Shown here: positions 36,526-53,959 of the stretch, piece by piece
Layout of the letters: each line of letters starts with the position of its first letter
Position numbering within the stretch: position 1 is the stretch's first letter
Assembly: GCA_016930235.1 (NCBI GenBank)
Contig: JAFGHI010000010.1
Span: 250-64,249, forward strand
Direction: 5' to 3'
Length of the DNA: 64,000 nt
Origin: Candidatus Omnitrophota bacterium
GTDB lineage: Bacteria > Omnitrophota > Omnitrophia > Omnitrophales > Aquincolibacteriaceae
Program-made: the position numbers and the translations under genes
The notes under the pieces: generated by a model
Databases searched by the model: none
What the model saw: the letters and a program-made list of their open reading frames with translations, nothing else
What the model was told of the DNA's origin: nothing

Positions 36526-38182
36526 GAGTTTTCTTCTCTTCTGAGGCTTGATCGTTTTTAGCCAGCCGGAAGCGCCCGTTTTTTTCCCGGTTGACCTGAT
36601 CCTGAAAATGGAGATGGACACGTTTGCCTTCAACAATTTCTTTCTCAATAATTTCCTGTTCGGCCAGAATCTTTTCGATCTCCTGCTCGCGTGAGCGTAT
36701 TTCGCTCTCGATTTCTTTCTGCTTCTCAACAAGCTCCCTGAAATAACCCTCTTTCTCGACTAAACGATCCGCCAATTGACTTCGCTTCTCGTGAATTCCC
36801 TGTTCGGCTTGAATTTTACGCATCTCCTGTAATTGCCGTTTAGCCTCTTCGATTTGCGCATCATAACCTTGAAGCTTCTGGATGGCTCCCTGAAGCTCTG
36901 TTTCTTGTTTTTCACAAGTCCGGCAGAGTTCCGTCACTCTCTCTTCGGACCCCTTGTATTTGGACTCCCAGGATTGAGAGGTTCGCCGCGCTTCCTCCAG
37001 TTCCTGATATAGCTTAGCGCGGTCTTTGTCCACTTCTCTTAAACGGTCTTCTACCTTTTCACGAAGTGTTTTCTCGGTCTGCTGTGCCTCCTGCAAGATA
37101 TGGATCTGTTGTTCTAACGTCTCCTGTTTTTCACGCCAACGGCTCAATTGTTCGCCGCTTACCCGCGCACCCCGTTCTAGGTTTTCCTTCTGCCGTTCCA
37201 AATCCTTAACGCTTTCGGCAAGCTCTTCGGCCTTGAGACGCCACTGGTCAATCATTTGGGTCGCCTGTTGAAGCCTCTCCTCCAGTTGTTTGTTTTTTGT
37301 CTCCAATTCTCCCCGGTACTGACGGCCTTGTTCTTCCTTCTCTTTGATCCGGCTTCCGAAATCAAGCCGCTCGTTTTGAAAAACCCTCGCATTTTCCTCG
37401 AGTTCTTTATTGCGTTTGCGTAAGGTCTCCATTTCTTGACGCGTTTGGACCATCTTTTCTTCAAAAAGCTCTCTCGCCTCCCGGTACTCGTCTTTAAGGA
37501 CATCATACTTTTCTTCTAAATTGGAAAGCAAGGCACGTGCCTCTTTGATCTCCTTTTCCCTTCCTTGAAGGAGGCTTAACTCCGGAGCCGGCAACGGTCT
37601 TTGAGCACGAGCCTCTTCAAGTTTTCGAATGATCTCCGTTAATCGGGAAACTTCTTTTTCAAGATCTGCGTGGGACCTTTTCCAATTTTCAATTTCAGAT
37701 TCCAGTTCGCGCCGCTCGGGTTCCGGCAACCCTGGAATCGGCATTACCTCCGCGTGCTCAGACTTTTCCGGGCTCTCTCTCATCATACGGATCGCATTTA
37801 AAGCCTCATCAGGTCCCAAAACCTCTTGGACCTCTTGATTCTTCTGATGACTCTCCCAAGTATTGAGAAACGCTAAGTTGGGAGGTTCAGGCCAAACGGT
37901 CCGGTAATATTTTCTTTTGCGGAAGGTATCATTGGTGAGAACGATTTGAGCATTGGCGGCTTCAAAAAAACCCTTCACTTTATGGGCAATGTCTTGATTC
38001 AGATTATCCAAAAGAATGATGGGTGTGCTTTCTACCAAATCGCTGGCTTCTTCGGAGGAAAGTGAAAAGACTTCGGAAATTTTGAGGGCAATCCGTTTCT
38101 TGTCGATCTCGCTCAGAATCGGATTCAGAACAACACACCAGTTTTGCTTTTCGCTTCGCGATTTCTTATTGCCTAGCAACAT
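36512..38182 (-). CDS. L7/L12-C-terminal-domain-like protein fused to ~450-aa coiled coil
   Basis: The N-terminal ~80 aa (EEASDLVESTPIILLDNLNQDIAHKVKGFFEAANAQIVL) closely parallel the ribosomal L7/L12 CTD (EAKDLVESAP...EAGAEVEV). The remainder is an uninterrupted E/K/R/Q-rich heptad coiled coil. Confidence 0.6.
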   Translation of the reverse strand: MLLGNKKSRSEKQNWCVVLNPILSEIDKKRIALKISEVFSLSSEEASDLVESTPIILLDNLNQDIAHKVKGFFEAANAQIVLTNDTFRKRKYYRTVWPEPPNLAFLNTWESHQKNQEVQEVLGPDEALNAIRMMRESPEKSEHAEVMPIPGLPEPERRELESEIENWKRSHADLEKEVSRLTEIIRKLEEARAQRPLPAPELSLLQGREKEIKEARALLSNLEEKYDVLKDEYREARELFEEKMVQTRQEMETLRKRNKELEENARVFQNERLDFGSRIKEKEEQGRQYRGELETKNKQLEERLQQATQMIDQWRLKAEELAESVKDLERQKENLERGARVSGEQLSRWREKQETLEQQIHILQEAQQTEKTLREKVEDRLREVDKDRAKLYQELEEARRTSQSWESKYKGSEERVTELCRTCEKQETELQGAIQKLQGYDAQIEEAKRQLQEMRKIQAEQGIHEKRSQLADRLVEKEGYFRELVEKQKEIESEIRSREQEIEKILAEQEIIEKEIVEGKRVHLHFQDQVNREKNGRFRLAKNDQASEEKKTHGNR

Positions 38183-38763: not shown

Positions 38764-39093
38764 CTATCTTGCGTAAAGGATAAAATCCTTGGCGGGCTGA
38801 TGTTGGATGAAGTGTTTCTGGATGATTTGCTCAAGCTTCTCTTCGTCTAACTCTTGATACCAAATGCCTTCAGGATATACCACAGCCAAGGGCCCCTTTT
38901 GACAAATCCCAAAACAGGAGCACTGGCTCCTCAAGACCCGGTCAGGCCCTTCGTTGAACTTCAATTCCGTCAATCGTTTCTTCAACCATTGATAGAGTGC
39001 CGAGGAAACCTCTTGCCGGGCACAACGCGGGCCTGTACAAATAAAAATATGACGCCGGTACGGTGCCATGACAAACGGATTATTTGCCGGCAC
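38764..39093 (-). CDS. thioredoxin-like [2Fe-2S] ferredoxin (COG3411-type)
   Basis: The Cys pattern HIFICTGPRC...CSCFGIC is typical of NuoE-like thioredoxin-fold ferredoxins. Confidence 0.6.
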   Translation of the reverse strand: MPANNPFVMAPYRRHIFICTGPRCARQEVSSALYQWLKKRLTELKFNEGPDRVLRSQCSCFGICQKGPLAVVYPEGIWYQELDEEKLEQIIQKHFIQHQPAKDFILYAR

Positions 39094-39526
39094 AAGATTT
39101 CTCCATTTGACGCATTTTCGTCTCCAAAACCTTAAGAAGCAGGGGTTGATCAGCTATCGGTGTCCCGTAATGGAAATCAAGTTCAGGATGTTTGGCCTTC
39201 GCTTCCTGAATCATTAAAGGGATATCTTCTTTGACGTGTTTTCCGCCGAAGAACATCATCGGCAGAACAAAAATCTGGCCAACACCCTTTTGGGCGCATT
39301 CGTCAATCGCCTGACCGATGGAGGGTTCGACAAACTCCATAAAAGCACCGGCGACAAACCGATCCGGACAGAGGTCCTGAAATTGTTCGACCAGAGATAG
39401 AAAGGCCTGATTGCTTTCCTTGTCTTTCGTTCCGTGCACAATCAGAAGATAGGCACCCTGTTTCTCAGTTGACACCGGGAATCCTTGTGAATTAATCCAT
39501 TTGACAGACGGGAGGCAAAGTCGCAT
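39080..39526 (-). CDS. cbiX: CbiX-like sirohydrochlorin chelatase (small form)
   Basis: LLIVHGTKDKESN...VLPMMFFGGKHVKEDIP fits a CbiX/SirB half-domain. Confidence 0.6.
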   Translation of the reverse strand: MRLCLPSVKWINSQGFPVSTEKQGAYLLIVHGTKDKESNQAFLSLVEQFQDLCPDRFVAGAFMEFVEPSIGQAIDECAQKGVGQIFVLPMMFFGGKHVKEDIPLMIQEAKAKHPELDFHYGTPIADQPLLLKVLETKMRQMEKSCAGK

Positions 39527-39833
39527 CCATCGGGATCACAAACGTCCCGACTTCACAAGCACCGACCAAAATGCGCCTTACCATATAGACCGTCCCCTTA
39601 CCTAACCCTGTAAAAAAACCGTACCACGGACCGCCTTCCATTTCATTGCCTATTCCGCATGGAATCTCCGCAACACTGGAAACAATATTCACAAGGCCTC
39701 GGCCGAGTTTAATTCCGGAATCCGTAACCAAATCCCCTGTCGTCGCTTCACCTGCCAGAGCGTAAGGTGCGATACCCCACATCAACATGACGAACACAAG
39801 AAACATGATTGTCGTTTGCTTTTTCATAATCAC
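39492..39833 (-). CDS. small secreted protein, putative exosortase-system-associated (TIGR04073-like)
   Basis: 113 aa with a signal peptide and a KLGRGLVNI motif followed by a G-rich core (GFFTGLGKGTVYMVRRILVGACEVGTFVIP). This resembles the TIGR04073 family as recalled; there is no database check. Confidence 0.45.
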   Translation of the reverse strand: MIMKKQTTIMFLVFVMLMWGIAPYALAGEATTGDLVTDSGIKLGRGLVNIVSSVAEIPCGIGNEMEGGPWYGFFTGLGKGTVYMVRRILVGACEVGTFVIPMDATLPPVCQMD

Positions 39834-39967: not shown

Positions 39968-42900
39968 TTACGCGGCTTTTTGGATTTGGAGAGCAGCCTG
40001 GACTTCTTGACGCAACAAGCGATCAATCGCGGAAACATTCACAATCGGGCGTCCCTCGGAATCAAAAACAATAATCTGATTTTCGGGTCCTTCTCCCATT
40101 TGCCGAAAGAGATAAACGGCTTTGAGGAGTTCGGCTTGGACATTCTTAGCATCTGTTGAAGTCCTGGCCATTAAAGCAGAGGCAAACGCGAACGCCGTTT
40201 GAGTCATCCTCCCCAAAACTTGAGATTCTAATTTAGCTTCGCTTGTAAGGCGAATGCCGACCGGCAGAACCTGAGCCGTCTGCTCCATAAGAATTTCATC
40301 GCTAAACTCCATGACGGGCAGGACATTCTGTCCCGAATTTAGGATGGTCACCTGCCGGGGACTGGATGCCGCCGTAAAGGGAATCGGTATCGACTTTAGA
40401 ACTTGGATTAAAGCATTGGCGGCCTTTTTATCGCCGAGAATAGCAAAGCGATCCAATTCTCCCCGCAGGAAATAGGACCGGATGATATCCCCGTATTGTC
40501 CGATCGCGCTTTCACGATCCAACCTCGAGATCCCATCTTTTAATTCAGGAATATCCAGCCCCAAAGTTACCTTGCCTTGATAGGTATCTGCCACCTGCTG
40601 CATGAAAGTTACAAGATCCCGAACCGCCCGTTCCGCAATTTTCGACGTCATGCTATAAACTTCAGGCCTGTCTTCAAAAGCTGTGCCGAATCCTTGACGG
40701 CTTAAAAGTTCTTCGACGGCAATTTCGACAGCCCGCTTGAGAACCTGTTCCAGTTCCGCACCGTCAATTTGATGCGCGACGATCGGTCGCACGGCTGAAA
40801 GCACCTCCGATTGATCAGGCAAAACAAAATCTGCGGCTAATGCTTCGGCCGGAATCAAGGATCGCGCAATCGTTAAAGCACTGTCCACCCAAGTTAAGCG
40901 GAGTTCCGAACGGGGTTCCATCGGTGTGCCGTAAAGTTCCTCGGGCGTCCATGTTCCATCCCAGCCCTCCGGTTTCTTCATCACCGCAAGTTTTTTCAAA
41001 GCAGGCTCAGGTTTGGGTTTTGCCTGCAGCAGAGATTGTCCTTGCTTCTGTAAGCGAATCTGCTGCCAAGAGGCAAGCGGAAGCATAATTTCGATCTTCC
41101 CTATCCCGGGTAAAAGCGGGTTCCGAAGATGATACTCGATTTGGACCCCCGAGTCGGCCGCAATTCCGACCAGAACTTCCGTAAAGATCTCAAAGGCATC
41201 CCAAAGAGGATTGCTTACGCGATAACCTTCGCTCATTTGAGGACGCTCGGGTAGGGGTAAATAAACGCTCACACCCTGCTGCATATCCGGTCTCGATTTA
41301 ACAAGTTCAAAAAGACGAAGAAATTGTTCCCGGTAAGATGCCTCGTTCCACCCACCCTCATTAAAATCCGCAATGCCTTTCTCGGGATAACCCGCAATAT
41401 CCTGATCCAGGGCATCCAGCGTCATGACGCGCGGAGCAGGAGGTTTCGCGGTTCTTTTATACTCCTCGGCAAAAGTCGAAGCCGCCTTTTCTCCCATAAC
41501 AACAAACCGTTCATTTTGTCTCAATAACCCTTTTTCATACAAGATATCAAAGACCTCGCGAATCGGCATTTCTTGCCTTAATTCCGAGCGAACTTCTTCA
41601 GTCTGGGGGATTCCGGGACCCCGGAAAGACTTCGTGGCAACAAGATAATGATATTGCCGGTTATCATCCAGAAGGGTTCCGCGCTGAACATCAGACCATT
41701 TGAGGGCCTTAAACGCTTGGAGATCGCTTACTGTGAAGGGTTCCTCTTGAATGGAAATAAAACGGCCCCCCGGATTCAAGACAAGCCAGGCAACATCCGT
41801 CTCATTTGTTTCAACCACCGTTCCCTTAGTCAAAATTGAAAAGACAATATCCTGACTCTCTTTCCATTGAGGATTTTGATACTGGCTTAAATCACTTTCT
41901 CCGGTTAGAACAACCGTCTTCTCAGTTCCTGTCAATCCCAAGAAAGAGTTTAAGGAATCACGCAATCGGGATCCGATCGAAATATCAACCGTGCCGCCAA
42001 CTTCGGAAACTTGAGAGGTTTCGGACAATCCGGGCTGTTGTTGGTAGGGTTGCTGCCTTTGAGGTTGTTCTGCGGGAACTCGCTCCACTTCCGGAACAGG
42101 CTGAACAGCATCAGGAGAAATACTCTTCGCCTGCACCTGAGATGAAATATCGCTGATCTCACGTAACTCCGAACGCGGGCGCTGCCTTCGCGCAATCTTA
42201 AACCTCTGAAACACGTTCCCCTGCAAAATCCTATCCTGAATGGTGTTCTGCAACCGGCTCACCGCTTGATCAAACTCATCAACCGATGGCATCTGTTCTC
42301 CGCCCGCCAAAATCCGCTCAACGAGGGGCTTGATCTGTGATTCAATTTCCTCTGGTGTCGTATTCCGGACAAATTCCAGCATCTCCGGGACCTGATTCGT
42401 CTCAGCCACCTGGTAAACTTCAATCTCCGGCCGTATCAAGCGTAAAGCCAGAAGGGCCAAGAGCAAACGCCTGGAACCACCCCACACACCGTCAACTGTT
42501 ACCCACTTGCCTTTTGAATTCATAGAAGCCGCCACTTCCGCAATCTTTCCGACCAGATTCGGATGAAGCTGTCTAAGTTTCTTTTGCGCCTTTGGATCAT
42601 CGCGCCCAACCTGATTAATCGAAACCATTAAGTCATTTGACCCGACAGCATAAAAATCCGCATCGGGAGATATCATGGCATTCTCCTTCTCAAACATAAA
42701 ACCAATAAGGATCTGATTAATAATCTGACGCGCCTTTTCTTGCTCTTCTTCGACAATCCCGCTTAAATACTCCGTTTTAGCCTCCTCAATTAATTCAAGG
42801 ATACCGTTTATGTCTCTCTGATCAATAATATCCGGAATAAGAATATGCAAATTGACTTCGGGCTGCGGCCCCTTTCCTTCTCGCGCAAGTTCTTCTAAAC

Positions 42901-45900
42901 GATTATAAGCAGCAACCTGAGCCTGAAAAAAAACCATCAGCTGCATTTTGCCGAATTCCCGAAACTGTTTGAACAAGTCTCCATAATGTGGGTGAGTGCC
43001 TTCCTTATCCAAATAGAAACGAACACCCAAACGGTTGCGCCCTTCTTCTAAGGGGATCTCTAAAATCCTTCTCACCTCATCTGGTTTTCTCCCTTCGGTA
43101 AGGATCTTCGGGCGTTTGTCCATCTGAACATCAAAAATTCTCACAATAAAAGGCCGCCTTACCTGGAAAAAAGGCTGCATGAGAATCCCTTGGATTGTCT
43201 GTGCGAATCGGACCCGGTCATTTTCAATCCCCTGCCATCCGGGATGGGCCGCCAATTGCTCGGTTCGAAAAAGTCCGACACCCTTTCCACCGTGACGCTC
43301 AACAATCGACCGCAGTTCGGCCCGCCTCTGAAAATCCTCAGGTTTCGTATCATCCACATAAAATAAAATCTCCCGACCCGCAAAGAAAACCGGCTCATCG
43401 GCCCGGGCAAGAAAAAAGGCATCTAAATCAGCATAACTTTCCCTCCTTGCAAACCATGTATCCCGCGTTTGGTAATCAGGTCTCAACACAACGAACCCCT
43501 CACGGCCATCAGCCATGGCCCAACCCTGAAGTGTTTCCTTGGAAAATTCTAACCCGGCAGCTTCAAAATCTGCAGCCGGTATCACTACAATCCCCAAATC
43601 CCGGGCGAAGGTCACCCAATGTGACAAGCTTGTGCCACCCGGGCTCACAATCGCAACAACCCTTCCGTGACCACGCAAAGAACTCAAAAGATGGTAAAGA
43701 TCCCGCTCATTCTCAATAGTCTTCGCGAACACCACCAAATCACGATCGACTTGTTGGGTTGGGCCAAAGCGTGCACGGTCGTAATAACGCATGAGAAATT
43801 CAAGCGCCTCAGGTTCAACATCGTTGACACGCCTGCCCTCACCGCCCCTATTATCCGCATAAGCATTGAACATAGGGATCATGGTTTCCTGAAAATAACT
43901 GATGATGCCAGCTTGAAAAGGATCGTCTGGCTGAATTCTCTCCCATTGGCCACTGCGTATCTCATCCAAAACATTCTGAAAAACCTCTGCGGCATGCTGC
44001 CGGTTCTCACGAACCCGCCGTGAGATCTCGTCAAAAATCATCCGCAAAATCTCCTCAACGGCATGCTGCTGCTCCTCGCCAACCCATTGCCTGATCTGCG
44101 TGACAACTCCCGGAGGGAGGAATTCCATTTCAGCGGGCACCTCCCCTTCAAGGGGCATCTCTAACACTATTTTTTTATGTCCCTCCCAGAATCTTTCCAG
44201 GACTCCAGCCTCATTTTCAAACGTCTGTTGGGCCCTTAAATCCATAAAATGGCGCATATAGAACAATGCCGTGAGATATTCGATAGACCGGCCGGTTTTT
44301 AAAATATCCTGGCGTACCTGAAAGTCAAATCTCTTCACCCATGCTTTCCATTTTTCGATGTTTGTATGTGCCTCTTCATGCAAGGTCCGATCAACGGCTG
44401 CAATGCTGGCTTCGTCTTCTTTCTTTTTAACCATCGCGCTGATTCTCTTTTGAATTTCCGCCTCATAAGATGCCGTAATGGCATCTAGAAATTGATCCAG
44501 AACATCAACCATAACCTCTTCGTGCCGGCGAACTTCCTCTTCTTTTTTTACCTGAACTTCTTCCTCAAGATCACTCATCTCAAAAATATAGTCATACGTA
44601 TCCAAATCTTCTTGGATGCTTTCAACATACCCTCGAAGCTCTTCATTCACTTGAATCATGCGTTTAAAAAGTTCACCACTGGGTAAATTACGGAAATTTG
44701 CAATATGTGCGTTGAGAAGGTCAATAATAATTTGAAGGGCTTTTTGAGGCGTTTTCCCCTTATCAAGGTGGTAAGCCAAGCGCTCAAAGACATCCATCTT
44801 GATCGTCTTAGGCCTGCCATGTTCATCGATTGTCATACCATAGACTGTATTATCAGCAAACATCCTACGCCTCGTATAGGAAGCTTCTTTCTGACCGTCC
44901 GCAAGCTTAGAATCGTCTGTATTCAAACCAAAAGGCAAATTCAGGAACAAATCAAATACTTTGGTCATCAACCGGTCTTTGGCGGTTTGGATTAAGACTT
45001 CGCGGACTTTTTTATTATGATCCTCGTCGGGTAAATGGATAAAATCCTCCCGATTGACAAGGGCAGGGATCACCGACCCCTGAATAAAACCCATGGCATA
45101 TACCGTCGTCGGGGCAGGAGCCGTTTGTTCTGCCAACTCCCGTTTCATTTCGTCAAGCATTTGCCTTAAGACTTCATCACTTCGGCTCTCTTGATGGCGG
45201 ACCCGATAAATAGCCTCTTCAAGAAGAAGCCCTAAAACTTCTTGCATTTGTTCCCCTAAAGACATCTGGCGCTCACTCTCATCCAAAACGCGCCGCCAAA
45301 TATTTGTTAATGCATGGACTTCATTTTCAACCTTTTGGGCAGCTTCCCGTGGCGTATCAAAAGGGCGGACAAGCGAGAAATTCACGCGCTTGGCTTCCCT
45401 TTCCCAAGTAACTATTTCACCCGAGGCAATAACATTCATCGCCGGCGAGGATCCCCGAAGGATCAGATTGTTAGGTCCTGTTCGAAGCTCGGAGCGTTGT
45501 GATTTAGATTCCGCCTGCACCGGGACTGACGGGACATCGACATAACGTTGATGGATAGCAAACTGCTGGAGGTGATGTATCAAAAGTTCGATTCTCCACC
45601 GCCAAGAACGGATGACTTGATAAGACAGCGTTACGGCAATCGCTGCCATCAGGGTTAGAACCGAACAGGACAAAGCAAAAGGAATATTCCCTTCATCCCA
45701 AGAAATTGCCACACGAATTAAAAAAACAATGCCTGCCATAGCCGTCATACTTCCCACTAAGAACCAACGAAATCCGGCCGCAAAAATCGAATTATACAGC
45801 ATGTCTTCATCCAACACGTCGACCACTTCTTGAATTCTTTCTTGGATATTCAAATCTTCATCCTCCAGAATTTCTGTGATTTCAGCATCATTGGATAGGC

Positions 45901-48900
45901 GCAACCACAAATCCCGATAAACGGGATTGTTGATTTTTTGATCGAGCCAACCCGCAAATTCCCCGCGAAGACCTGTGAGATCTTCATCGCGAAATTCTGA
46001 ACGCAAGTTAACACCGGCGGCATCATCACCCGCCCATCTCAACATGGGCTCACCTGATTTCCTTTGTGCAATTTCAAGCCCCCCATTCCCCCAAGTAAAG
46101 AAAATCCCTTTCCACCACAAAGCAAGAGAAGAAACCAAAGCGAAATCCGCAAGAGCACTCGTTAAAAGATTATTCGATGAAGGATACTCCCGGACTTTTT
46201 CGATATCCCCGATTGCAAAACCTCCGCGCTTTAATAAATCCCGCTTAATCGAATTAACTTGGTAAATTTCTCTCCGTCCCTGAAACTCTTCACCTGGAGC
46301 AGGAGATCTCTTGATATCCTCGTAGTAATAATTCGGCGCTTTCTCTAAGGTCAAATCCAATCCGCCATTTTCGGCAATGGCTTTCTGTAATTCCATGGGA
46401 AGCGAAGATAATTCCTCAATCTGTTCACCGCCCAAAAAGTAAACTGTCCGAAGTTTCTCCCGACCTTCCTCCGGATGCCGCCACACAAAAGATATTGTCC
46501 AACGGTCCCTACCAAGCTCTAAGCGGTTAATCGTATAATCACGCACACCTAGTTCTTCTAAACTCATTAAGAAAAGGGTGCGAATATTGATGCCCAGAAA
46601 ACTCATTGTCAAGATGCCGTGAACGCCGCCCTCATCAACTCGCGATGCATGAACTCGTTCCCGTAAAAGGGGCTGATATTCCTCCCCTTCCTCAGAAACC
46701 TTCTCACCGAAGGTAGCCTGATCACTCATGATAAGCTGCGTTGCGTTCGTCGTAAAAAGAGCACGAATAACATCGAATCCCGAATTAAAATACCAGGCAA
46801 ATTTTTCTTCATTCTTCCGGTTGACCTTGGAGCGAATGGCATCCAAAAATTCATATTCACTAACCCGCATCCACTCGCTGTAGTCATGGGCGCGTCCTTC
46901 ATGGATCCAAGCCGCATCCGAAGTAATGGCCGGCTCCGCCCGCGCAGGCTTTCTTAACTCCGAACGGCCGAGAGATTTGCCGGCCACCGCCGGAACTTTC
47001 GTCTTCTGAATCTGCCGAGCGACAAGATTCCAGACCGTAAATTCATCGAGTTCAGATGTAAAAATTATCCGACGGCCGCCGTCGAAAACCAAAGGTTCAG
47101 CGGCCTTAAGCAAATAAGTGTTGTTGGCAACAACGTTGCGGACGGCCCGGATGTACCCCATAAAATGATCACTCCTCGCAGCAGATTGGGCTTGAGGGCT
47201 GCTGTTATAATAATTAGCCCAATAAAGAATTTGATCATTGTTCCCCTTTGGGAGCGGCACCGGGATAAGAAGGTACTTGATCCGCGCAAGAAAGACTGCG
47301 GCGGCGGGATGAACTTTTAAATACTCTTGGAAGTCGCGGGAACTTGCTTCTTGGCCGGACGCAAACCACCTGAGTGTTACCTCATCGACATCATAAAAAA
47401 TAGGCATGGCCATGGCGGTCCAGTCCTCACGCCCCAAAACCCGACTCAAGAGATATTCCGCCGATCCAGGTTCACCTCCATAGAATTCGTCGGTCTGCAA
47501 TTGATCGGACTCCACCACAAGGGTCCGGGTCAAAAGTTTTTGGATATTCTCCCGGTATTCGGGTGATTCCTCTGAATCCGTCAACGCCAGAACAGCATCG
47601 ACGATTTGAACAAGCGGAATGAGACGGGTTTCAAAGTCTAGTGCGTTTTTATCGATCTGAAGGCGGAGATTTTGATCCATCGGCGTAAGGGCAGTGACAT
47701 GTTCTTCTAAAGGCTGCTCTTCTTGAGGAGAAACTTCTAATGGAATTTCAAACGGTTTCGTAACAGCTGGCGTTTGCGGCACTACCGTTACGTCTGCTGG
47801 AGCTCCAGCCTCAAGAGGAGCCTGATCTAAGGGAGCAATAATGATGGAAGAGGGTTCTTTGACCGTACCCGCTGCAACTCTCGAAATTTGCCTATCGATG
47901 ACCAACACAAATCCAAACGCAAGAACCGCCAACATATATCCCGTGAATATATCGAAAACACGTTTCCCCGAACGATAAAACCAGTTCGTTCCCAATAGAA
48001 GAATTCCGCTCCCCGCAGCAAGAACGAAAACCGCCAGCAAAGGAACACCGAGATGGTGTCCAAAACGGACGATCATCGCCGAAGCCATCGTGAGTGAAAG
48101 AACCGTCATCAAACTTGATACTAAAAAATGTCGAACATTTTCCCAATCAATGATTCGCTTTAGCATCCTGAACTGGTCCGCTCTAAGTTCCGAACGTTCA
48201 CTTGTCTCAAGAGAAGACGTCTTTTCGATTTCTTGACGGACAAGACGCCAAACTTCGAATTCTTCAAGATCGCGCGGCAAAACCGCAATTCCATCGATCT
48301 CGATGGGTTGAGTTACGCTTAACGGATAACTCTTCCCCGCCACCTTTGCGCGGGCCGCTTTAATAATTGCGCCAAAGTTATCCACTTTGGCCGCCCGTTT
48401 AGCTTTTGGACTTCCGTTGTAGTAGATGGCCCAATAAAGAATTTGTTCATTTTCACCAAAAGGAATGGGCGAGCGAAAAAGCCGATATTTGACCCGAGCT
48501 AAAAAGATTGAAGCTGCAGGATGGGTGCGCAGATATTCTCTCAATTCCCGTGAACTTTTGTCCTTGCTCGACGCAAATCGCCGGATCGTCGTTTCATCCA
48601 CATCATAAAAAACACGTTGGACAATAGCCTTCCAATCCGCCCGCTGTAAAATCCGGGTCAAAAGATATTCCGCCGTTCCGGACCCGTCTCCGATATTAAC
48701 TTCAACGTTGGCCACACCCGCCCCGGGGCCTCCCCGATATTGTTCGTCGGCCCGCAGTTGATCCGATTCCACCACAACGGTTCGGGTAAGAAGCTTACGG
48801 ACATTTTCCCGGTATTCCGGCGATTTATCGGAATCTATGAGTGCTACAATTGCGTCAACAATCTTAACGAGAGGAATCAAGCGGGTTTCAAAATTCTTGG

Positions 48901-51900
48901 CGTTTTTATCGATTATAAGGCGGAGGTATTCATCAATCTGTTCATCGGTGAGAGCCGCCTTTCCAATACTGCTCTGCTCCCCTTGCAGAACCCGCTTTAC
49001 GGCTTCAATCACATTCGGTTCGGGAATATCACGAATGGGGGCAACGGGTGCTGCTTTTTCAATGGAGGCAGGTGCTATTTCCGGAGGAGGCCTCGGGGCT
49101 TCAGGCGTAGTTGTTCGGCTTATTCCGACTTCCTGTCGAGCTTGGACATCCCTAACATCCTTCATATGCAGGAACGATACGACTCCAAAGGTGAGAACAA
49201 AACTTAAAAGGCCTACCATGATATTCGAAAAGCGCTCACCCAATTTGAGTTTCCTGCCGGTAAAATAAAGGAAATACGCAAAACCGGCCAAAAGGAAAAA
49301 AACAGCCGCCGGAGAAACTCCCAAGTCGTATATGGCTGGAATACCCAAGACCGGCACACCGAATAAAACAGATAAATCAAAAACCAAAGACGCCAGGTAT
49401 TTCGTCAGCCGGATATCCCATGATTCTTTTTTAGCGATTGCTTTTTCCGCCCGCAGCTCGGATCTCTGTAATGGTCCAAAAATCGCATCAACTTTTTCCC
49501 TTATAACACCGGCATAAGCAAATGCCTGGAATTGATCAAATACCCCCAATCGTTTCGCCGCGTTATAAGCCGGCACATGCACTTTACCCACCTTGTCACT
49601 TACAAGTATGAGAAACATTTCTTGTTGATACATAAAAGCAGAGCCTTTAAAAATTTTAGCCATGAGAACAGCGCCCACCATAAAATCGCCCCAAAGCTCT
49701 CCCCATTGGACCACAACCTCGGGAGTAATTGCTTCATCCGTAAAAATAGCCTCCATCAAATCCATAGCACCTGAAAGCTTTCCTAAAACCTCAACGGACC
49801 AACTATAATCTAGCGCCTGCGCTCTTAGGGCCTCATTGTCAGAAGCAAGGGAGTAATTCATCAACATCAAAAGGGTATTAGCCGCACTGACTCGAATTAG
49901 CGGCATTGCAGTTCCATCCCCTACGAGATCACGCAAATCATTCATCACCTGAAGCGCATCCATACCACTTTGACTTAAAGCCAAACCTCTGCCGGTCAAT
50001 TCACGCAAGGCATCTTGCCGCGCCTTCACATCGATACCCTTGTTTTTCGCATTCGCAAGCAAATCCTGAATCTCCGCCCGCAGTTCGGAGCGGGTATCTG
50101 CGGAAACTGCTTCTACTTCTCCTCGGCGCAGTTTGCCTTCATAAATCAAAACACGGGCTTGGAGAGGATTTAATCGATGAATTGCATCAAGGGCTTTGGG
50201 TAAAATATCAAGCCATTGGAGCGTTTTTCCGGCCCTCTTGATGCTAATTCGTCGCTCATAGAGTTTGGCATCCGGCCATGTCTCCCACTCGGCAATCCTT
50301 TCCAACGTATCCTGCACCCACATCTCGGGATTAAAACCAAAAATTAAACTCTCCGTTTGTTCTTCAATTTCGTTACGCGATAATTCCATAGCAGCTTGGA
50401 TTCGACCTTGGAGGCGTTCCTCAATGGATTGGATTTCGATCACGGCTGCATCCACATTTGGGTTCATCGCATAGATACTCCCTCCCAAAATATTGGTAAC
50501 TTGGACAAGATTGATCTGTAATCTTTGTAAACTTGTAAGCTCCCTGACGTCATCATCACGGACATCCCCTTCAAGATGAGTCCCTAAGACACGCAGCTGA
50601 ACCAAGACATCCGGCAGAAGAGCCCCGTTTAACTGATCGATTCTTTCTGCAATCGCCGCACCCTCTGTAAGCTCCTGCTCGAGAACCCGTTGAAGCCGGT
50701 CAATAGCCACATCCGCATTGATCAATGCAAGAAAATAATCGTTGATAAGCGATTGCCTTAATTCTGAACGGCCCGACACAAGCACCGACTCACGCATCCT
50801 GGCTTCAACCATCAAGTTGCGCAGTGTTTGCTCTAATTGTTTAACTTCCGCCGGGTCTTTAGAATCAAGATACGGCATCATCAATTCCGAAAGCTGGACC
50901 ATGCGGTAAATCGCAAAAAGAAGATCTGGCATATCCATCTCTTGGATGGCCTGTTTTGAAGGTAATCGCGTTACTGCCTCTTGAATAACGGACTTCTCGA
51001 TTGGCTTATCATCACCAATGTTGGCCACTGCTTTGATCTGCTCAAGCCAAAGGTCCAGGACTCCTCTCACATTATCCAAGATCGCTATTTTCTCCTCGAA
51101 AGCAGGCTCTCTTTGATAAAAGCTCATCTTTGTAAGATCACTCAATGCTAAATTAAACTGGCTTATCTTTCCGGACAGTCTTCGCAAAAACCAGTAAAGA
51201 GCACCCGCGTCAACAACGTCTCCTTGTATCCCGTCCCACAAAAGATTCATGACAAGCACGATTGATTGAATCACCCCGTGCAACCGGGTCTCTGTTAGCT
51301 CTTTCTGGTATTGCCGGGCCTCCTCATCCATGATGATCTTCTCCCCGATTGCCTTGTCAGCCAAAGTGAGCTCCTCCCCGATGATCTTCATGGTTTCTAA
51401 ACCGTTTACCACAAATGCTCTCCGACTTTCCGTCTGACTGAGATCAATCGCCGATGCCCCCTTGTCAACGGACATAAAACCTTGCTTCTGAAACTGAAGA
51501 ATCCTCAACGAGAGAACCCTCGAACGAAGCTTCGCGGCGTAGCTTCCGATAATTTCCATCTTTGCCTTAAGGGCTGCACTCGTCGCCCCTAAAGGCATCC
51601 GTGAGCCTCTGGATAGAGTTTCCAGGCACATAATCAACCCCTCAAATCCTTCAATCAACGGAATTTCACTTTCATGAACCGGAACCGGCGGTTCCCCTAA
51701 AAGTTGGTCAAAAACACTCAAAGCATCCAGAACACGAGTCAGATGCGGCTCAAACATACCCTGTAACATCTGCAGGATGAGCGGATCGCTTAGATTCTGC
51801 CGGCTAAAAGACATCGTCGCATCTAACGCTAATCGCGAGGATGAAAGTGCTCTCGCTAAATGCCGGGCCATTTGCTGGCTCGTCATACTCCGCAGTTCAG

Positions 51901-53959
51901 AGCGACCGGGGACTTGATCTAGGGTATCAATTTGGACCGGGATCCCCTGCAATCCACTAGGAACAACACCTTCTGATACTAAACGGCGTTCAACACCTAA
52001 GTGAGGCAAAACACCTGCAGGAAGTTTGGAAAGGTTAATGGCATCGCCGGCCGCAAGAACGGGGTAAGTAAAACCATCGGAGGTCGTGGCTGTCTGGAGA
52101 AGATTCAAGATATTTTGTTCGGTGAGGTCGCCTTGGGCGTCCAGATCGCGGATCCCTTGAATGAAACGTTCGATATTCTGAAGCCATTTTTGACGGAGTT
52201 TTTGGATGCTTTCTTCATCCAGGATTTCATCGATAAAGAGGGTATACTTCCCTGCTTGATCTAATCTCTTTTGGCCTGCCAAATCTCGGACAATTTGATC
52301 ACGCCAATGTTTTAAAAGGGTGCCGGGGTCTTCACCGCTTTCCTCAACCAGCTTATCGCGAGTCGAACGGATAAAGGCTTTGTAAATATTGATTCGGTCA
52401 TTCTCGACCCGGAAATACCCTTTCCAAGCCACCTCACCCCGCATATTTTGGCGGTAACTCGTTTCATCAGGAACCGAACTGATTCTTGGCATTACCAGAA
52501 CATAAGAAATTCCCTCTTGGCGGAAACGCTCAGTCAAACCTTCGGTATGAAAACCGCCAGCGATTAGGACACTGGAACTGTGTGAAGAGTAAAGAGTATC
52601 TCGTGAAGAGCTGCTCTGCATCTTTTGAATCAAATTTTGGTAAAAAGCCTGATCACGCGCTTCGGCTGTTTGATAAAAAGCGATGTGATGTTTTAAATCG
52701 TCTTGTCCCAGAGGGATTTCCTCAAATTCTTGACCTTGGATTATAGTTTCGATACGTTTCCAATCCTCATAGCCGATATTCAATTTTGCGAGCCTCGTAA
52801 GGAGATCCAGATGAAGGCCTCTGCGGTTAAGGTCCCGTTCAAGGTCAGTTCGGTAGAATTTCTCCTTCACGGATTCTGTATACGCCTGGAATTCCTTAAA
52901 AAGCCTTGTGCCGCGAAGATCCTTCATCCTCAGCTGATTTTGCATAAGGGGCTTAAGAGTGTTTGACACTTCAAGAGAAATCCCCTTTTCTTCGATGAGC
53001 TCCTTCATGAATAGCGCAAAGGCTTCGGGAGTTATTTGGGATATCTGAAAGGCCTGCCGTTTTTTATGAAAACGTTTAAGGTCCTCACGCCCGCCATTTG
53101 TCGAATCACCTTGATGCAAGAAATCCTCGACTTTTTCGGCAAGGGCCATGACTTCCCGGTCTAAATGAACGCGGTCCACGAATTGATTTTCGTATTCCCC
53201 CAAAATCAAATCGAGCTCGGACCCTTTGGCCAGCTTCTGATAATTTGAAAGTTTCTTCAGAACGGTTATGAAGGTTTCCAAATTTTCACCAAAATCCTGA
53301 AGCAAGCGATCGATCGCGAGAAGTTCTTCGGGATACGTGTTTTGTTTTTCTTCTTGAAGCCCTTTTTCCGCAATTGAAATTCTCCGGAGGAAGTCTTCTT
53401 CTTTCCCTGCCGCCTGAAGAAAATAGGCCAGCCCTTGTTCATAGAGATCCCAATTCTCAATCCCCTCATATTGGCCCTCGACATGGTTAAGAATCGCGGC
53501 AGCCGTACTTCCTGTAAGCTCCCCTTTTTCGTGATAATCATTTAATACCTTTTTTAATAATTCCTGATCCGGAAAACTTCTGAGGATCTGAGGATCCAAT
53601 CGGCTAGCAGCACCTTCTAAAGCGATGAGGTCCACACCGTAAGTCTCTTGAAAATATCCGATAAGCCTTTGAATATTTAGCTGAGCTTCAGGAATAGCGT
53701 GGGCATCTTGAATAAGGACAACGGTCTGATCGTTTTGGCCTTGATACCTTTCAAGAACCTCTCCGATCTTTTCCGGGATTTCGATCTTTGAAATTTCAAA
53801 GGGTATAGATTTCTCTAATTTTTTGTCAGCCAAAGGTAAGAGATTTCCCGAGGCGTATACAGGCAAACTTAGATGGTTCGTCACAAAGAAAGTCATGACG
53901 ACTATTAAAGCCACTGATTTAATGAGTGTAGACCTCTCCTGCATGAAGTCTCCCTTCAT
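39968..53959 (-). CDS. giant (4663 aa) secreted/multi-pass membrane protein with internal duplication, embedded PEP-utilizing phosphotransfer module and ten RSELR motifs
   Basis: A single uninterrupted 13,992-nt ORF. It has an N-terminal signal peptide (…LSLPVYA|SG) and hydrophobic TM clusters near aa 1425-1455, 1521-1600, 1945-2025, 2603-2625 and 2722-2785. Aa 3430-3500 resemble a PEP-utilizer phosphohistidine swivel domain (GGTSLSHWVTFARDLGIVVIP). Aa 3555-3800 resemble the PEP/pyruvate-binding TIM barrel (GVGLFRTEQL ... GSNDLMVSINQVGRDD). The second ATG at 53944 has the better SD (AAGGGAG). Confidence 0.85.
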   Translation of the reverse strand: MKGDFMQERSTLIKSVALIVVMTFFVTNHLSLPVYASGNLLPLADKKLEKSIPFEISKIEIPEKIGEVLERYQGQNDQTVVLIQDAHAIPEAQLNIQRLIGYFQETYGVDLIALEGAASRLDPQILRSFPDQELLKKVLNDYHEKGELTGSTAAAILNHVEGQYEGIENWDLYEQGLAYFLQAAGKEEDFLRRISIAEKGLQEEKQNTYPEELLAIDRLLQDFGENLETFITVLKKLSNYQKLAKGSELDLILGEYENQFVDRVHLDREVMALAEKVEDFLHQGDSTNGGREDLKRFHKKRQAFQISQITPEAFALFMKELIEEKGISLEVSNTLKPLMQNQLRMKDLRGTRLFKEFQAYTESVKEKFYRTDLERDLNRRGLHLDLLTRLAKLNIGYEDWKRIETIIQGQEFEEIPLGQDDLKHHIAFYQTAEARDQAFYQNLIQKMQSSSSRDTLYSSHSSSVLIAGGFHTEGLTERFRQEGISYVLVMPRISSVPDETSYRQNMRGEVAWKGYFRVENDRINIYKAFIRSTRDKLVEESGEDPGTLLKHWRDQIVRDLAGQKRLDQAGKYTLFIDEILDEESIQKLRQKWLQNIERFIQGIRDLDAQGDLTEQNILNLLQTATTSDGFTYPVLAAGDAINLSKLPAGVLPHLGVERRLVSEGVVPSGLQGIPVQIDTLDQVPGRSELRSMTSQQMARHLARALSSSRLALDATMSFSRQNLSDPLILQMLQGMFEPHLTRVLDALSVFDQLLGEPPVPVHESEIPLIEGFEGLIMCLETLSRGSRMPLGATSAALKAKMEIIGSYAAKLRSRVLSLRILQFQKQGFMSVDKGASAIDLSQTESRRAFVVNGLETMKIIGEELTLADKAIGEKIIMDEEARQYQKELTETRLHGVIQSIVLVMNLLWDGIQGDVVDAGALYWFLRRLSGKISQFNLALSDLTKMSFYQREPAFEEKIAILDNVRGVLDLWLEQIKAVANIGDDKPIEKSVIQEAVTRLPSKQAIQEMDMPDLLFAIYRMVQLSELMMPYLDSKDPAEVKQLEQTLRNLMVEARMRESVLVSGRSELRQSLINDYFLALINADVAIDRLQRVLEQELTEGAAIAERIDQLNGALLPDVLVQLRVLGTHLEGDVRDDDVRELTSLQRLQINLVQVTNILGGSIYAMNPNVDAAVIEIQSIEERLQGRIQAAMELSRNEIEEQTESLIFGFNPEMWVQDTLERIAEWETWPDAKLYERRISIKRAGKTLQWLDILPKALDAIHRLNPLQARVLIYEGKLRRGEVEAVSADTRSELRAEIQDLLANAKNKGIDVKARQDALRELTGRGLALSQSGMDALQVMNDLRDLVGDGTAMPLIRVSAANTLLMLMNYSLASDNEALRAQALDYSWSVEVLGKLSGAMDLMEAIFTDEAITPEVVVQWGELWGDFMVGAVLMAKIFKGSAFMYQQEMFLILVSDKVGKVHVPAYNAAKRLGVFDQFQAFAYAGVIREKVDAIFGPLQRSELRAEKAIAKKESWDIRLTKYLASLVFDLSVLFGVPVLGIPAIYDLGVSPAAVFFLLAGFAYFLYFTGRKLKLGERFSNIMVGLLSFVLTFGVVSFLHMKDVRDVQARQEVGISRTTTPEAPRPPPEIAPASIEKAAPVAPIRDIPEPNVIEAVKRVLQGEQSSIGKAALTDEQIDEYLRLIIDKNAKNFETRLIPLVKIVDAIVALIDSDKSPEYRENVRKLLTRTVVVESDQLRADEQYRGGPGAGVANVEVNIGDGSGTAEYLLTRILQRADWKAIVQRVFYDVDETTIRRFASSKDKSSRELREYLRTHPAASIFLARVKYRLFRSPIPFGENEQILYWAIYYNGSPKAKRAAKVDNFGAIIKAARAKVAGKSYPLSVTQPIEIDGIAVLPRDLEEFEVWRLVRQEIEKTSSLETSERSELRADQFRMLKRIIDWENVRHFLVSSLMTVLSLTMASAMIVRFGHHLGVPLLAVFVLAAGSGILLLGTNWFYRSGKRVFDIFTGYMLAVLAFGFVLVIDRQISRVAAGTVKEPSSIIIAPLDQAPLEAGAPADVTVVPQTPAVTKPFEIPLEVSPQEEQPLEEHVTALTPMDQNLRLQIDKNALDFETRLIPLVQIVDAVLALTDSEESPEYRENIQKLLTRTLVVESDQLQTDEFYGGEPGSAEYLLSRVLGREDWTAMAMPIFYDVDEVTLRWFASGQEASSRDFQEYLKVHPAAAVFLARIKYLLIPVPLPKGNNDQILYWANYYNSSPQAQSAARSDHFMGYIRAVRNVVANNTYLLKAAEPLVFDGGRRIIFTSELDEFTVWNLVARQIQKTKVPAVAGKSLGRSELRKPARAEPAITSDAAWIHEGRAHDYSEWMRVSEYEFLDAIRSKVNRKNEEKFAWYFNSGFDVIRALFTTNATQLIMSDQATFGEKVSEEGEEYQPLLRERVHASRVDEGGVHGILTMSFLGINIRTLFLMSLEELGVRDYTINRLELGRDRWTISFVWRHPEEGREKLRTVYFLGGEQIEELSSLPMELQKAIAENGGLDLTLEKAPNYYYEDIKRSPAPGEEFQGRREIYQVNSIKRDLLKRGGFAIGDIEKVREYPSSNNLLTSALADFALVSSLALWWKGIFFTWGNGGLEIAQRKSGEPMLRWAGDDAAGVNLRSEFRDEDLTGLRGEFAGWLDQKINNPVYRDLWLRLSNDAEITEILEDEDLNIQERIQEVVDVLDEDMLYNSIFAAGFRWFLVGSMTAMAGIVFLIRVAISWDEGNIPFALSCSVLTLMAAIAVTLSYQVIRSWRWRIELLIHHLQQFAIHQRYVDVPSVPVQAESKSQRSELRTGPNNLILRGSSPAMNVIASGEIVTWEREAKRVNFSLVRPFDTPREAAQKVENEVHALTNIWRRVLDESERQMSLGEQMQEVLGLLLEEAIYRVRHQESRSDEVLRQMLDEMKRELAEQTAPAPTTVYAMGFIQGSVIPALVNREDFIHLPDEDHNKKVREVLIQTAKDRLMTKVFDLFLNLPFGLNTDDSKLADGQKEASYTRRRMFADNTVYGMTIDEHGRPKTIKMDVFERLAYHLDKGKTPQKALQIIIDLLNAHIANFRNLPSGELFKRMIQVNEELRGYVESIQEDLDTYDYIFEMSDLEEEVQVKKEEEVRRHEEVMVDVLDQFLDAITASYEAEIQKRISAMVKKKEDEASIAAVDRTLHEEAHTNIEKWKAWVKRFDFQVRQDILKTGRSIEYLTALFYMRHFMDLRAQQTFENEAGVLERFWEGHKKIVLEMPLEGEVPAEMEFLPPGVVTQIRQWVGEEQQHAVEEILRMIFDEISRRVRENRQHAAEVFQNVLDEIRSGQWERIQPDDPFQAGIISYFQETMIPMFNAYADNRGGEGRRVNDVEPEALEFLMRYYDRARFGPTQQVDRDLVVFAKTIENERDLYHLLSSLRGHGRVVAIVSPGGTSLSHWVTFARDLGIVVIPAADFEAAGLEFSKETLQGWAMADGREGFVVLRPDYQTRDTWFARRESYADLDAFFLARADEPVFFAGREILFYVDDTKPEDFQRRAELRSIVERHGGKGVGLFRTEQLAAHPGWQGIENDRVRFAQTIQGILMQPFFQVRRPFIVRIFDVQMDKRPKILTEGRKPDEVRRILEIPLEEGRNRLGVRFYLDKEGTHPHYGDLFKQFREFGKMQLMVFFQAQVAAYNRLEELAREGKGPQPEVNLHILIPDIIDQRDINGILELIEEAKTEYLSGIVEEEQEKARQIINQILIGFMFEKENAMISPDADFYAVGSNDLMVSINQVGRDDPKAQKKLRQLHPNLVGKIAEVAASMNSKGKWVTVDGVWGGSRRLLLALLALRLIRPEIEVYQVAETNQVPEMLEFVRNTTPEEIESQIKPLVERILAGGEQMPSVDEFDQAVSRLQNTIQDRILQGNVFQRFKIARRQRPRSELREISDISSQVQAKSISPDAVQPVPEVERVPAEQPQRQQPYQQQPGLSETSQVSEVGGTVDISIGSRLRDSLNSFLGLTGTEKTVVLTGESDLSQYQNPQWKESQDIVFSILTKGTVVETNETDVAWLVLNPGGRFISIQEEPFTVSDLQAFKALKWSDVQRGTLLDDNRQYHYLVATKSFRGPGIPQTEEVRSELRQEMPIREVFDILYEKGLLRQNERFVVMGEKAASTFAEEYKRTAKPPAPRVMTLDALDQDIAGYPEKGIADFNEGGWNEASYREQFLRLFELVKSRPDMQQGVSVYLPLPERPQMSEGYRVSNPLWDAFEIFTEVLVGIAADSGVQIEYHLRNPLLPGIGKIEIMLPLASWQQIRLQKQGQSLLQAKPKPEPALKKLAVMKKPEGWDGTWTPEELYGTPMEPRSELRLTWVDSALTIARSLIPAEALAADFVLPDQSEVLSAVRPIVAHQIDGAELEQVLKRAVEIAVEELLSRQGFGTAFEDRPEVYSMTSKIAERAVRDLVTFMQQVADTYQGKVTLGLDIPELKDGISRLDRESAIGQYGDIIRSYFLRGELDRFAILGDKKAANALIQVLKSIPIPFTAASSPRQVTILNSGQNVLPVMEFSDEILMEQTAQVLPVGIRLTSEAKLESQVLGRMTQTAFAFASALMARTSTDAKNVQAELLKAVYLFRQMGEGPENQIIVFDSEGRPIVNVSAIDRLLRQEVQAALQIQKAA
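46952..48181 (-). repeat. giant-gene internal duplicated unit, copy 2 (aa ~1927-2336)
   Basis: Has the same TM cluster (HHLGVPLLAV / FGVPVLGIP; FYRSGKRVFDIF / FTGRKLKLGERF), Pro-rich linker and soluble module (NALDFETRLIPLVQIVDA...ILYWANYYNSSP...). It also ends in RSELR. Confidence 0.8.
48182..49450 (-). repeat. giant-gene internal duplicated unit, copy 1 (aa ~1504-1926)
   Basis: The unit is a TM cluster, a Pro-rich linker and a ~240-aa soluble module (NAKNFETRLIPLVKIVDA...ILYWAIYYNGSP...) ending in RSELR. It is paralogous to copy 2 at both protein and DNA level (e.g. ccaataaagaatttg at 48431 and 47221). Confidence 0.8.

Follow-up and report, generated by a model that had tools for sequence, protein, structure and literature searches.

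The element described here is a giant gene on the minus strand of a 64,000-nucleotide stretch of Candidatus Omnitrophota DNA (assembly GCA_016930235.1, contig JAFGHI010000010.1), which as a whole is called the window. Its open reading frame (ORF) of 4663 codons is punctuated by eleven copies of a pentapeptide, ten reading RSELR and one RSEFR, which divide the protein into 12 segments (S1 to S12) of 169-1107 amino acids (aa). The plan is that of a large family: a Sec-type signal peptide, a head of ~570 aa, hypervariable modules set apart by R-[SA]-E-x-R in short hydrophilic linkers, and a tail of ~207 aa. Giving it slightly less than an even chance, we propose that the chain is processed at the pentapeptide by the head, acting as a site-specific endopeptidase, which would make the ORF a polyprotein. 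An earlier description made without database searches (the sequence-only reading) had taken the product for a single polytopic membrane protein. This is probably wrong, as the punctuation, the conservation of head and tail and the evolution at the level of modules point to a polyprotein or to a string of autonomous modules. The same reading was right that the gene is genuine, giant and modular and comes from an uncultivated lineage, which is Omnitrophota.

The ORF runs without interruption over 39968..53959 (minus strand), as had been described, and its start probably lies 15 nucleotides (nt) further inside. Two in-frame ATG codons stand 15 nt apart (window 53944-53959), and only the second (window 53944, MQERST...) is preceded, at a suitable distance, by a Shine-Dalgarno-like AGGGAG. 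The deposited protein MBN1687848.1 (P0015 in our numbering of family proteins) is identical and has 4658 aa; it is annotated as a hypothetical protein of a Candidatus Omnitrophica metagenome-assembled genome (MAG) and lies on a single 66.8-kb contig. Given the Shine-Dalgarno-like sequence and the match to this record, the ATG at 53944 is probably the real start, with a product of 4658 aa.

The eleven copies of the pentapeptide are placed as follows:

51890..51904, minus strand: motif 1, RSELR, aa 686-690, at the end of a disordered linker after the head (AlphaFold2 (AF2) predicted local distance difference test score below 30 at aa 627-690)
50756..50770, minus strand: motif 2, RSELR, aa 1064-1068
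50078..50092, minus strand: motif 3, RSELR, aa 1290-1294
49451..49465, minus strand: motif 4, RSELR, aa 1499-1503
48182..48196, minus strand: motif 5, RSELR, aa 1922-1926
46952..46966, minus strand: motif 6, RSELR, aa 2332-2336
45989..46003, minus strand: motif 7, RSEFR, aa 2653-2657
45482..45496, minus strand: motif 8, RSELR, aa 2822-2826
42161..42175, minus strand: motif 9, RSELR, aa 3929-3933
41576..41590, minus strand: motif 10, RSELR, aa 4124-4128
40898..40912, minus strand: motif 11, RSELR, aa 4350-4354

Outside these eleven, no further copy of RSELR or RSEFR was found in the six frames of the whole window, and the RSELR-delimited segments of the sequence-only reading are therefore borne out. 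From typical residue frequencies, ~0.01 copies of the pentapeptide would be expected by chance. Arg is encoded by CGN as well as AGR codons at both of its positions, codon choice for Ser, Glu and Leu likewise varies among copies, and the giant ORF contains no DNA tandem repeats. Because the codons differ between RSELR copies and no DNA tandem repeat is present, the conservation lies on the peptide: selection acts on RSELR at the peptide level. A DNA-level repeat at the junctions is ruled out on the same grounds. A motif selected as peptide, in one ORF that apparently encodes many autonomous proteins, might also separate the segments during translation, by 2A-like peptide-bond skipping or similar recoding. 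Nothing else speaks for this, and we consider it very improbable. Known 2A elements need ~18 residues and end in NPGP, whereas our motif logos show no conservation past five residues. To our knowledge there is no bacterial precedent for such skipping, which would also leave the conserved hydrolase head unexplained.

The pentapeptide marks the boundaries of modules. Every Pfam domain detected in relatives falls inside one motif-delimited segment. In P0028, a complete 2-hydroxyacid dehydrogenase fills the segment 1851-2255, PCMT lies within 1003-1550 and an SBD_N/NBD_C/PdxA trio begins 4 residues past a motif, while in P0009 a PrmA-type methyltransferase sits between two motifs. We compared 532 local homology blocks between the cargo regions of different family proteins with random placement. 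Of the block ends, 34.1% lay 25 aa or less from a motif (10.5 +/- 0.9% at random), and 22.4% of the blocks spanned a motif (47.4 +/- 1.8% at random). The share of order-promoting hydrophobic residues is ~0.32 and falls to 0.20-0.23 only in the 5-10 residues next to the motif, and AF2 confidence is low on both of its sides (S1 aa 627-690; S12 aa 1-44). The residues past the motif are S, A or T, followed by an acidic-rich stretch. The median segment length is 305 aa (interquartile range 179-500), the size of an ordinary protein, and 418 of 531 non-head segments lack any transmembrane (TM) helix. A sortase- or exosortase-type sorting signal was considered and rejected, as most motifs have no TM helix following them and the TIGR04073 neighbour described below is not conserved. 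The cargo recognized in P0028, P0009 and P0144 includes PCMT, 2-hydroxyacid dehydrogenase, PdxA with a DUF1537-type kinase, a PrmA-like methyltransferase and a Laminin_G_3 lectin-like module.

Relatives of S1 occur in Omnitrophota MAGs at 37-45% identity. Among 1.84 billion representatives, an S1 profile retrieved 9,653 representative clusters at E <= 1e-3 and 6,572 at E <= 1e-30; in the best 150 matches the domain is N-terminal, in proteins of up to ~8,000 aa. Species-representative genomes yielded 213 S1 matches, the best 80 of which carry the label Omnitrophota or unclassified 'uncultured bacterium', with one exception labelled Planctomycetales. Going by the labels of its genomic loci, the family hardly occurs outside Omnitrophota. 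The earlier statement that the gene has no paralog is true inside the window, but single MAGs of related genomes hold 3-6 paralogous copies of this gene type. Likewise, the description of long stretches without a recognizable family was incomplete, as these stretches include the family-defining head of TIKI-superfamily fold (more than 9,000 clusters) and the conserved tail.

In the relatives, S1 gives way to a pentapeptide of the same kind, beyond which the sequence is unrelated. Per 1000 aa, family ORFs contain 1.4-1.6 copies of R-[SA]-E-[LVAMTIF]-R; for ORFs on the opposite strand at these loci the figure is 0.011. R-[SA]-E-x-R is ~125-fold enriched in family members. For the wider pattern [RK]-[SATP]-E-x-R, 962 copies were observed in cargo regions, 64 being expected from composition; taken singly, 93 of 125 long members were enriched at p < 1e-3. 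The cargo itself is hypervariable: 743 segments fell into 583 clusters, 512 of them singletons. With this recurrence, it is extremely improbable that the ORF is an assembly chimera or an artefact of multi-gene fusion. The exact protein is found on only one contig and has no close cargo relative in metagenome or protein searches, as a chimera would. Yet hundreds of independent MAGs and thousands of protein clusters show the same plan of head, motif-punctuated cargo and tail, base composition is uniform along the ORF, no DNA-level repeat lies at the junctions, and head and tail match family members at the expected ends.

Some family loci are split. In L025 (contig JBMONI010000010.1, 6187-6192), one in-frame TAG stands between a 1126-aa head-bearing ORF and a motif-rich continuation of 2947 aa (...EAEHRG*AIADQL...); a second gene with a head (L062) lies in tandem on this 21-kb contig. 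In L056 (8858-20838) and L077 (9977-22203), the head ORF overlaps the next motif-rich cargo ORF in a different frame. These overlaps may be frameshifts, due to recoding, pseudogenes or errors in the MAG. The 'head-only' P0006 (870 aa) is a product of this overlapping-frame type.

The head and its proposed active site are encoded at these positions:

53852..53959, minus strand: Sec-signal-peptide-like N-terminus, aa 1-36, with a charged n-region, a short uncharged core and a VYA/SG site; AF2 gives a helix at 4-30 and then a disordered linker
52082..53797, minus strand: head domain of S1, aa ~55-626, a TIKI/EreA/ChaN/RRSP-like alpha/beta hydrolase core split by a helical insertion of ~280 aa
53699-53701, minus strand: codon of H87, putative catalytic residue
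53615-53617, minus strand: codon of E115, putative catalytic residue
52655-52657, minus strand: codon of R435, putative catalytic residue
52547-52549, minus strand: codon of H471, putative catalytic residue

The N-terminal signal peptide that had been noted is supported by heuristics, which place an uncharged core of ~12-13 aa between the charged n-region and the VYA/SG site. The pattern is shared by the family: the n-region has a mean net charge of +3.1 and is positive in 190 of 203 heads, the median uncharged core is 13 residues long and AxA-like sites follow. From this sequence pattern the head is predicted to be exported by a Sec-type signal.

S1 has an alpha/beta fold with a parallel beta-sheet core and flanking helices, as in the TIKI superfamily, which was defined in the RRSP structure paper by an alpha/beta core, a 2His/2Glu catalytic set and a conserved basic residue (PMC6254334). 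The corresponding residues are E3900, H3902, E3930, H4030 and the basic R4001 in RRSP, and H85/E113 in Bcr135 (PMC6254334). For S1 we propose the set D85-x-H87, E115, R435 and H471. E115 sits 28 residues past H87, the spacing seen in both Bcr135 (H85/E113) and RRSP (H3902/E3930), and by sequence the 2His/2Glu set is present with Asp, not Glu, as its first acidic residue. The basic residue would be R435, 36 residues before H471, its equivalence to RRSP R4001 being judged from order and spacing. H87, E115, R435 and H471 are invariant in 214 heads, while D85 and E168 are ~99% conserved.

Neither Pfam nor NCBIfam has a model for S1, and full heads gave no Pfam match (PF01963, PF05139, PF04187 and others) at E <= 0.1. 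With the insertion removed, 5 of 22 core-only heads matched PF04187 ('Tiki superfamily, ChaN'; best E = 0.002) and one matched PF05139 (erythromycin esterase; E = 0.019), all below gathering scores, and no other family recurred. A Foldseek search of the head against the PDB returned nothing significant, and sequence profiles of full and core-only heads found no TIKI-family chain in the PDB. Taken together, the head is predicted to have a TIKI/erythromycin-esterase-like hydrolase fold with an intact His/Glu/Arg/His active-site set and a putative activity. It shares the alpha/beta core and the pattern acidic-x-His...Glu (+28)...Arg...Gly-x-x-His with TIKI, TraB-PrgY, erythromycin esterase, ChaN, HopBA1 and RRSP, and like TIKI, PrgY and ChaN, which are extracytoplasmic behind a signal sequence, it is predicted to lie outside the cytoplasm. 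It differs from them in lacking an above-threshold Pfam match, in its helical insertion, in the Asp that replaces the first Glu and in being fused to thousands of residues of cargo. Distant stand-alone head-like proteins also exist (P0012, P0013 and P0014; 434-714 aa, 22-27% identity); they keep QDxH...E...R...GGFH and carry no cargo.

The motif comes in lineage-specific flavours (RSELR, RAEVR, RSEAR, RTEMR, RSESR, KSELR and RPExR), and seeming exceptions carry a variant of their own (DRTEMR and RSESR, seven copies each, K[SA]ELR and RPExR). Two motifs taken from one protein are identical in 23% of pairs; for paralogs of one genome the share is 18%, and for different genomes 7%. The lineage-specific flavour suggests that the motif co-evolves with a recognition factor, which is one of the grounds for the processing proposal. 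The head is the candidate for this role, since it is the sole conserved enzyme of the family and always accompanies the motif, and since its fold relatives TIKI and RRSP are site-specific endopeptidases. TIKI cuts Wnt and RRSP cuts Ras and Rap1. A mutual-information comparison of head columns with motif flavour included only eight Ala-type proteins, and its signal is confounded by phylogeny.

It is also conceivable, if unlikely, that the polyprotein is cut at the motif by a separately encoded protease, such as a kexin-like or Arg-specific enzyme made by the cell itself or one supplied by its host or prey, and that the head has another job, for instance as an esterase or peptidase acting on the envelope or on prey. 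A flavour common to the paralogs of one genome is what a single enzyme per genome would produce. The stand-alone head-like proteins, the separation of head and cargo into different ORFs at L056, L077 and L025, the contrast between an exported head and largely cytoplasmic-looking cargo, and the fact that not all TIKI-fold enzymes are proteases would fit as well. Against this, no neighbour gene is conserved across 81 family loci (the best neighbour cluster occurs in 7 of them), the motif is confined to genes that bear a head or directly continue one that does, and no catalytic domain other than the head is conserved throughout the family.

Between head and tail, the protein carries the following cargo:

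49451..51889, minus strand: S2 (378 aa), S3 (226 aa) and S4 (209 aa), orphan cargo with no TM helix and no family match
48182..49450, minus strand: S5 (423 aa), with three TM helices at aa 1521-1599 (window 49163-49399), a Pro-rich linker and a soluble domain; paralog of S6
46952..48181, minus strand: S6 (410 aa), with three TM helices at aa 1945-2022 (window 47894-48127) and a soluble domain; paralog of S5
45482..46951, minus strand: S7 (321 aa, orphan) and S8 (169 aa), the latter with two TM helices at aa 2730-2783 (window 45611-45772)
42161..45481, minus strand: S9 (1107 aa), with a helical N-terminal half, a weakly matched phosphohistidine-type mobile domain and an Enzyme-I-type phosphoenolpyruvate (PEP)-binding domain
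40898..42160, minus strand: S10 (195 aa) and S11 (226 aa), orphan cargo

Four hydrophobic clusters are robust (the N-terminus, three TM helices in S5, three in S6 and two in S8); the 'at least five' of the sequence-only reading would require the two weak hydrophobic peaks of S7. The internal tandem duplication was correctly seen. S5 and S6 are end-to-end paralogs (43-44% identity over ~397 aa, E = 5e-95), the sole internal similarity of the protein, and the duplicated unit is exactly one RSELR-delimited segment, motif to motif. No homologue of S2-S8, S10 or S11 was found among 234 other family proteins. Word-indexed searches with S12 and with the S5/S6 alignment retrieved no cargo relatives, and scans of metagenome contigs found none for S10+S11 or S5/S6.

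S9 is the only one of the 12 segments recognized in Pfam and NCBIfam profile searches, and it contains the embedded enzymatic module that had been reported: PEP-utilizers_C (window 42437-43300) scores 58.7 bits against a cutoff of 22.8. S9 resembles Enzyme I of the phosphotransferase system (PTS) in this PEP-binding TIM barrel, in keeping GVGLFRTE and GSNDL, and in an upstream putative phosphohistidine segment of the GG-x-x-SH type. This segment reads GGTSLSH, one residue longer than the usual GGxTSH, and the phosphohistidine-domain match is weak (window 43574-43663). Unlike Enzyme I, S9 has Asp at the position of the catalytic Cys ('GMCGE' aligns with 'TVDGV') and ~550 aa of unrelated helical sequence in front, and no HPr-binding domain was detected in it. 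A true PTS Enzyme I was rejected on full-length scores (TIGR01417, 44.6 against 341.7 bits; PRK11177, 28.4 against 824), only PEP-utilizers_C passing its threshold. By its sequence S9 may be a divergent or repurposed PEP-utilizing enzyme. S9-homologous modules are present inside the relatives P0120, P0128 and P0143.

The C-terminal end of the protein is made up of two nested features:

39971..40897, minus strand: terminal module S12 (309 aa), ending in ...LLRQEVQAALQIQKAA
40028-40648, minus strand: family-conserved alpha/beta tail domain of ~207 aa, aa 4438-4644, inside S12

Family proteins end with the motif, 3-5 residues and AA or SA at the carboxyl terminus (P0033, P0055 and P0150; aa 4648-4663 of the window protein), as in ...ARAEVRKAA, and the ...LLRQEVQAALQIQKAA ending of S12 is a degenerate copy of this arrangement. 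The extreme C-terminus of the family resembles a C-terminal recognition tag, and its AA ending may be comparable to that of ssrA. The tail domain has no invariant catalytic residues across the family. It was rejected as a subtilisin-like protease, as an Asp/His/Ser triad on a subtilisin alpha/beta fold was not found.

The motif copy near the C-terminus bears on a further alternative, in which the motif stays uncleaved and acts as an inter-module linker or as a docking element, bound by the head, the tail, a chaperone or the export machinery, within one giant membrane-embedded protein. This is doubtful, though a serious possibility. Cutting 3-5 residues from the C-terminus would free only a tiny peptide, the motif is very short, as are the linkers around it (only ~10-15 residues), and in the giant-ORF discussion of PMC10066038 such Omnitrophota proteins are usually treated as single surface or adhesion proteins. 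A strict charged pentapeptide that co-evolves by lineage would nevertheless be unusual for a passive linker, the segments evolve as autonomous units, and the conserved hydrolase active site of the head would be left without an obvious substrate. In addition, we infer that in an uncleaved chain the paralogous 3-TM proteins S5 and S6 would be forced into opposite orientations, which argues for the polyprotein.

If the polyprotein interpretation is correct, the head would recognize and cut the RSELR/RSEFR sites of its own chain. Twelve products would result: the head, three soluble orphans, two paralogous 3-TM proteins, another soluble orphan, a 2-TM protein, an Enzyme-I-like PEP-utilizing enzyme, two orphans and the tail module. 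Such a system may carry out a co-translocational 'cut-and-release' export of hypervariable cargo that serves the predatory or parasitic lifestyles proposed for the phylum.

Several observations weigh against processing by the head. Cleavage of the chain at the motif is a prediction from sequence, a point that also favours the linker or docking role. About a quarter of the long members have only 1-4 motif copies. Motif flavour is specific to the genome rather than to the protein, which fits a shared trans-acting factor equally well. The TIKI superfamily includes esterases and a heme-binding protein besides proteases, and the first acidic residue of the head is Asp instead of Glu. The head is predicted to be exported, whereas many cargo enzymes are of a cytoplasmic type dependent on PEP, NAD or S-adenosylmethionine, and TM modules would place some motifs across the membrane from the head. 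In a positive-inside test the K+R ratio was 1.01 with whole-chain TM parity, which is fragile to errors of the crude TM caller used, 1.56 with parity reset at the motifs and 1.41 +/- 0.09 with random boundaries; 29 of 500 random boundary sets reached the real value, so that the motif boundaries were not convincingly told apart from random ones.

In their logic, MARTX toxins and viral polyproteins come closest to the present protein. MARTX toxins, known from Vibrio and relatives, likewise combine conserved ends with shuffled effector modules; they process themselves, and one of their effectors even has a TIKI fold. However, the glycine-rich A/B/C repeats, the cysteine protease domain and the RTX and type I secretion system (T1SS) features of MARTX were not detected here with Pfam and NCBIfam, and the protein instead has an N-terminal Sec-type signal and an N-terminal TIKI-like candidate protease. 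Its junctions are a strict pentapeptide, unlike the loosely defined Leu sites of MARTX, membrane proteins and housekeeping-type enzymes are among its cargo, and genomes hold several copies of the gene type. MARTX membership was thus rejected, there being no match in the same databases to the InsP6-activated Peptidase C80 domain, the N- and C-terminal glycine-rich repeats or the C-terminal T1SS signal, no tandem repeats and an N-terminus of the Sec type. A standard RTX or Bap adhesin, which the sequence-only reading had named as the known family to look for, was rejected too: Pfam and NCBIfam gave no match to repeat families such as the RTX nonapeptide, Ig-like or cadherin-like repeats, DNA tandem repeats are missing and internal similarity is limited to S5/S6.

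Viral polyproteins (picornavirus 3C, potyvirus NIa/TEV and flavivirus NS3) offer a parallel to the proposed processing, with one ORF, many products, membrane-anchored ones among them, and a short motif that co-evolves with an embedded protease. In contrast, the present gene is chromosomal and bacterial, lies among housekeeping genes (riboflavin operon) with no viral context, and has a different protease fold, and its cleavage is predicted. With somewhat more doubt than confidence, we suggest for the family as a whole that Omnitrophota routinely combine unrelated proteins (membrane proteins, enzymes and many orphans) in one polyprotein gene, whose product would be cut at R-[SA]-E-x-R by an N-terminal TIKI-type endopeptidase with a signal peptide, a cellular counterpart of the viral strategy.

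Giant ORFs of Omnitrophota have been described before (Seymour et al. 2023, PMC10066038; West-Roberts et al. 2023, bioRxiv 10.1101/2023.11.21.568195; Nielsen & Lui 2026, bioRxiv 10.64898/2026.06.07.730766). They share with the present gene the phylum, poor annotation, a richness in TM helices or signal peptides and, sometimes, a tiling with unrelated enzymes; the housekeeping-type cargo of our relatives echoes the class of 'multi-enzyme metabolic clusters' of Nielsen & Lui 2026. At 4.7 kaa (thousand aa), the present protein is smaller than the published 'giant' thresholds of 10-30 kaa and above. West-Roberts et al. (bioRxiv 10.1101/2023.11.21.568195) speculate on post-translational cleavage and state the cleavage points to be unknown, and the published giant-ORF papers invoke C39 and S8 peptidase domains. 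Text searches of West-Roberts et al. and Nielsen & Lui found no mention of the boundary motif, the TIKI-like head or the conserved tail. The giant-ORF and lifestyle discussion of Seymour et al. (PMC10066038), the part of that paper considered here, calls the function of giant ORFs 'poorly understood'. Full-text literature searches for the motif and for combinations of TIKI and polyprotein returned nothing relevant, and the family with its plan of motif, head and tail was found nowhere in the searchable literature.

Giant ORFs are a signature of Omnitrophota and other ultra-small, host-dependent bacteria, and the pentapeptide provides a first concrete and testable guess at the cut points of such proteins. 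For a family of more than 9,000 clusters, there is now a precise boundary motif with overwhelming statistical support, a candidate protease with defined putative catalytic residues and a conserved tail domain, and the motif allows giant proteins to be split rationally for structure prediction and annotation. If the proposal is true, the motif would be a cleavage code that splits thousands of unannotated giant ORFs into their real products. If confirmed, processing of this kind would be a rare case of gene expression through polyproteins outside viruses and would add a role to those known for the TIKI protease fold.

The giant ORF is set in a co-directional housekeeping block. Upstream of it lie the riboflavin genes ribBA, ribH, ribD and ribE; the genes downstream encode a TIGR04073-family protein, a CbiX-type chelatase and a 2Fe-2S ferredoxin. 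Three further features were located in the window:

39492-39833, minus strand: small TIGR04073 'exosortase system-associated' protein, directly downstream of the giant ORF
14712-14788, minus strand: tRNA-Pro(CGG)
8534-8611, minus strand: tRNA-Glu(CTC)

The first of these had been described as a downstream exosortase-associated-like protein, and the assignment stands (52.2 bits against a cutoff of 50). Its association with the giant family is probably incidental, as the gene is not among the recurring neighbours across the 81 family loci. The chelatase (148 aa, weakly CfbA-like; 38764-39526, minus strand) overlaps the gene of the ferredoxin, which is thioredoxin-like. A 556-aa ORF at 36512-38182 (minus strand) shows an odd pairing of a long coiled coil (SMC/Rad50-like) with a weak N-terminal match to the C-terminal domain of ribosomal L7/L12. 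Almost every long ORF of the window (1-64000) is on the minus strand, GC skew is negative throughout and the cumulative skew falls monotonically, which is consistent with a single replichore with a strong gene-strand bias.

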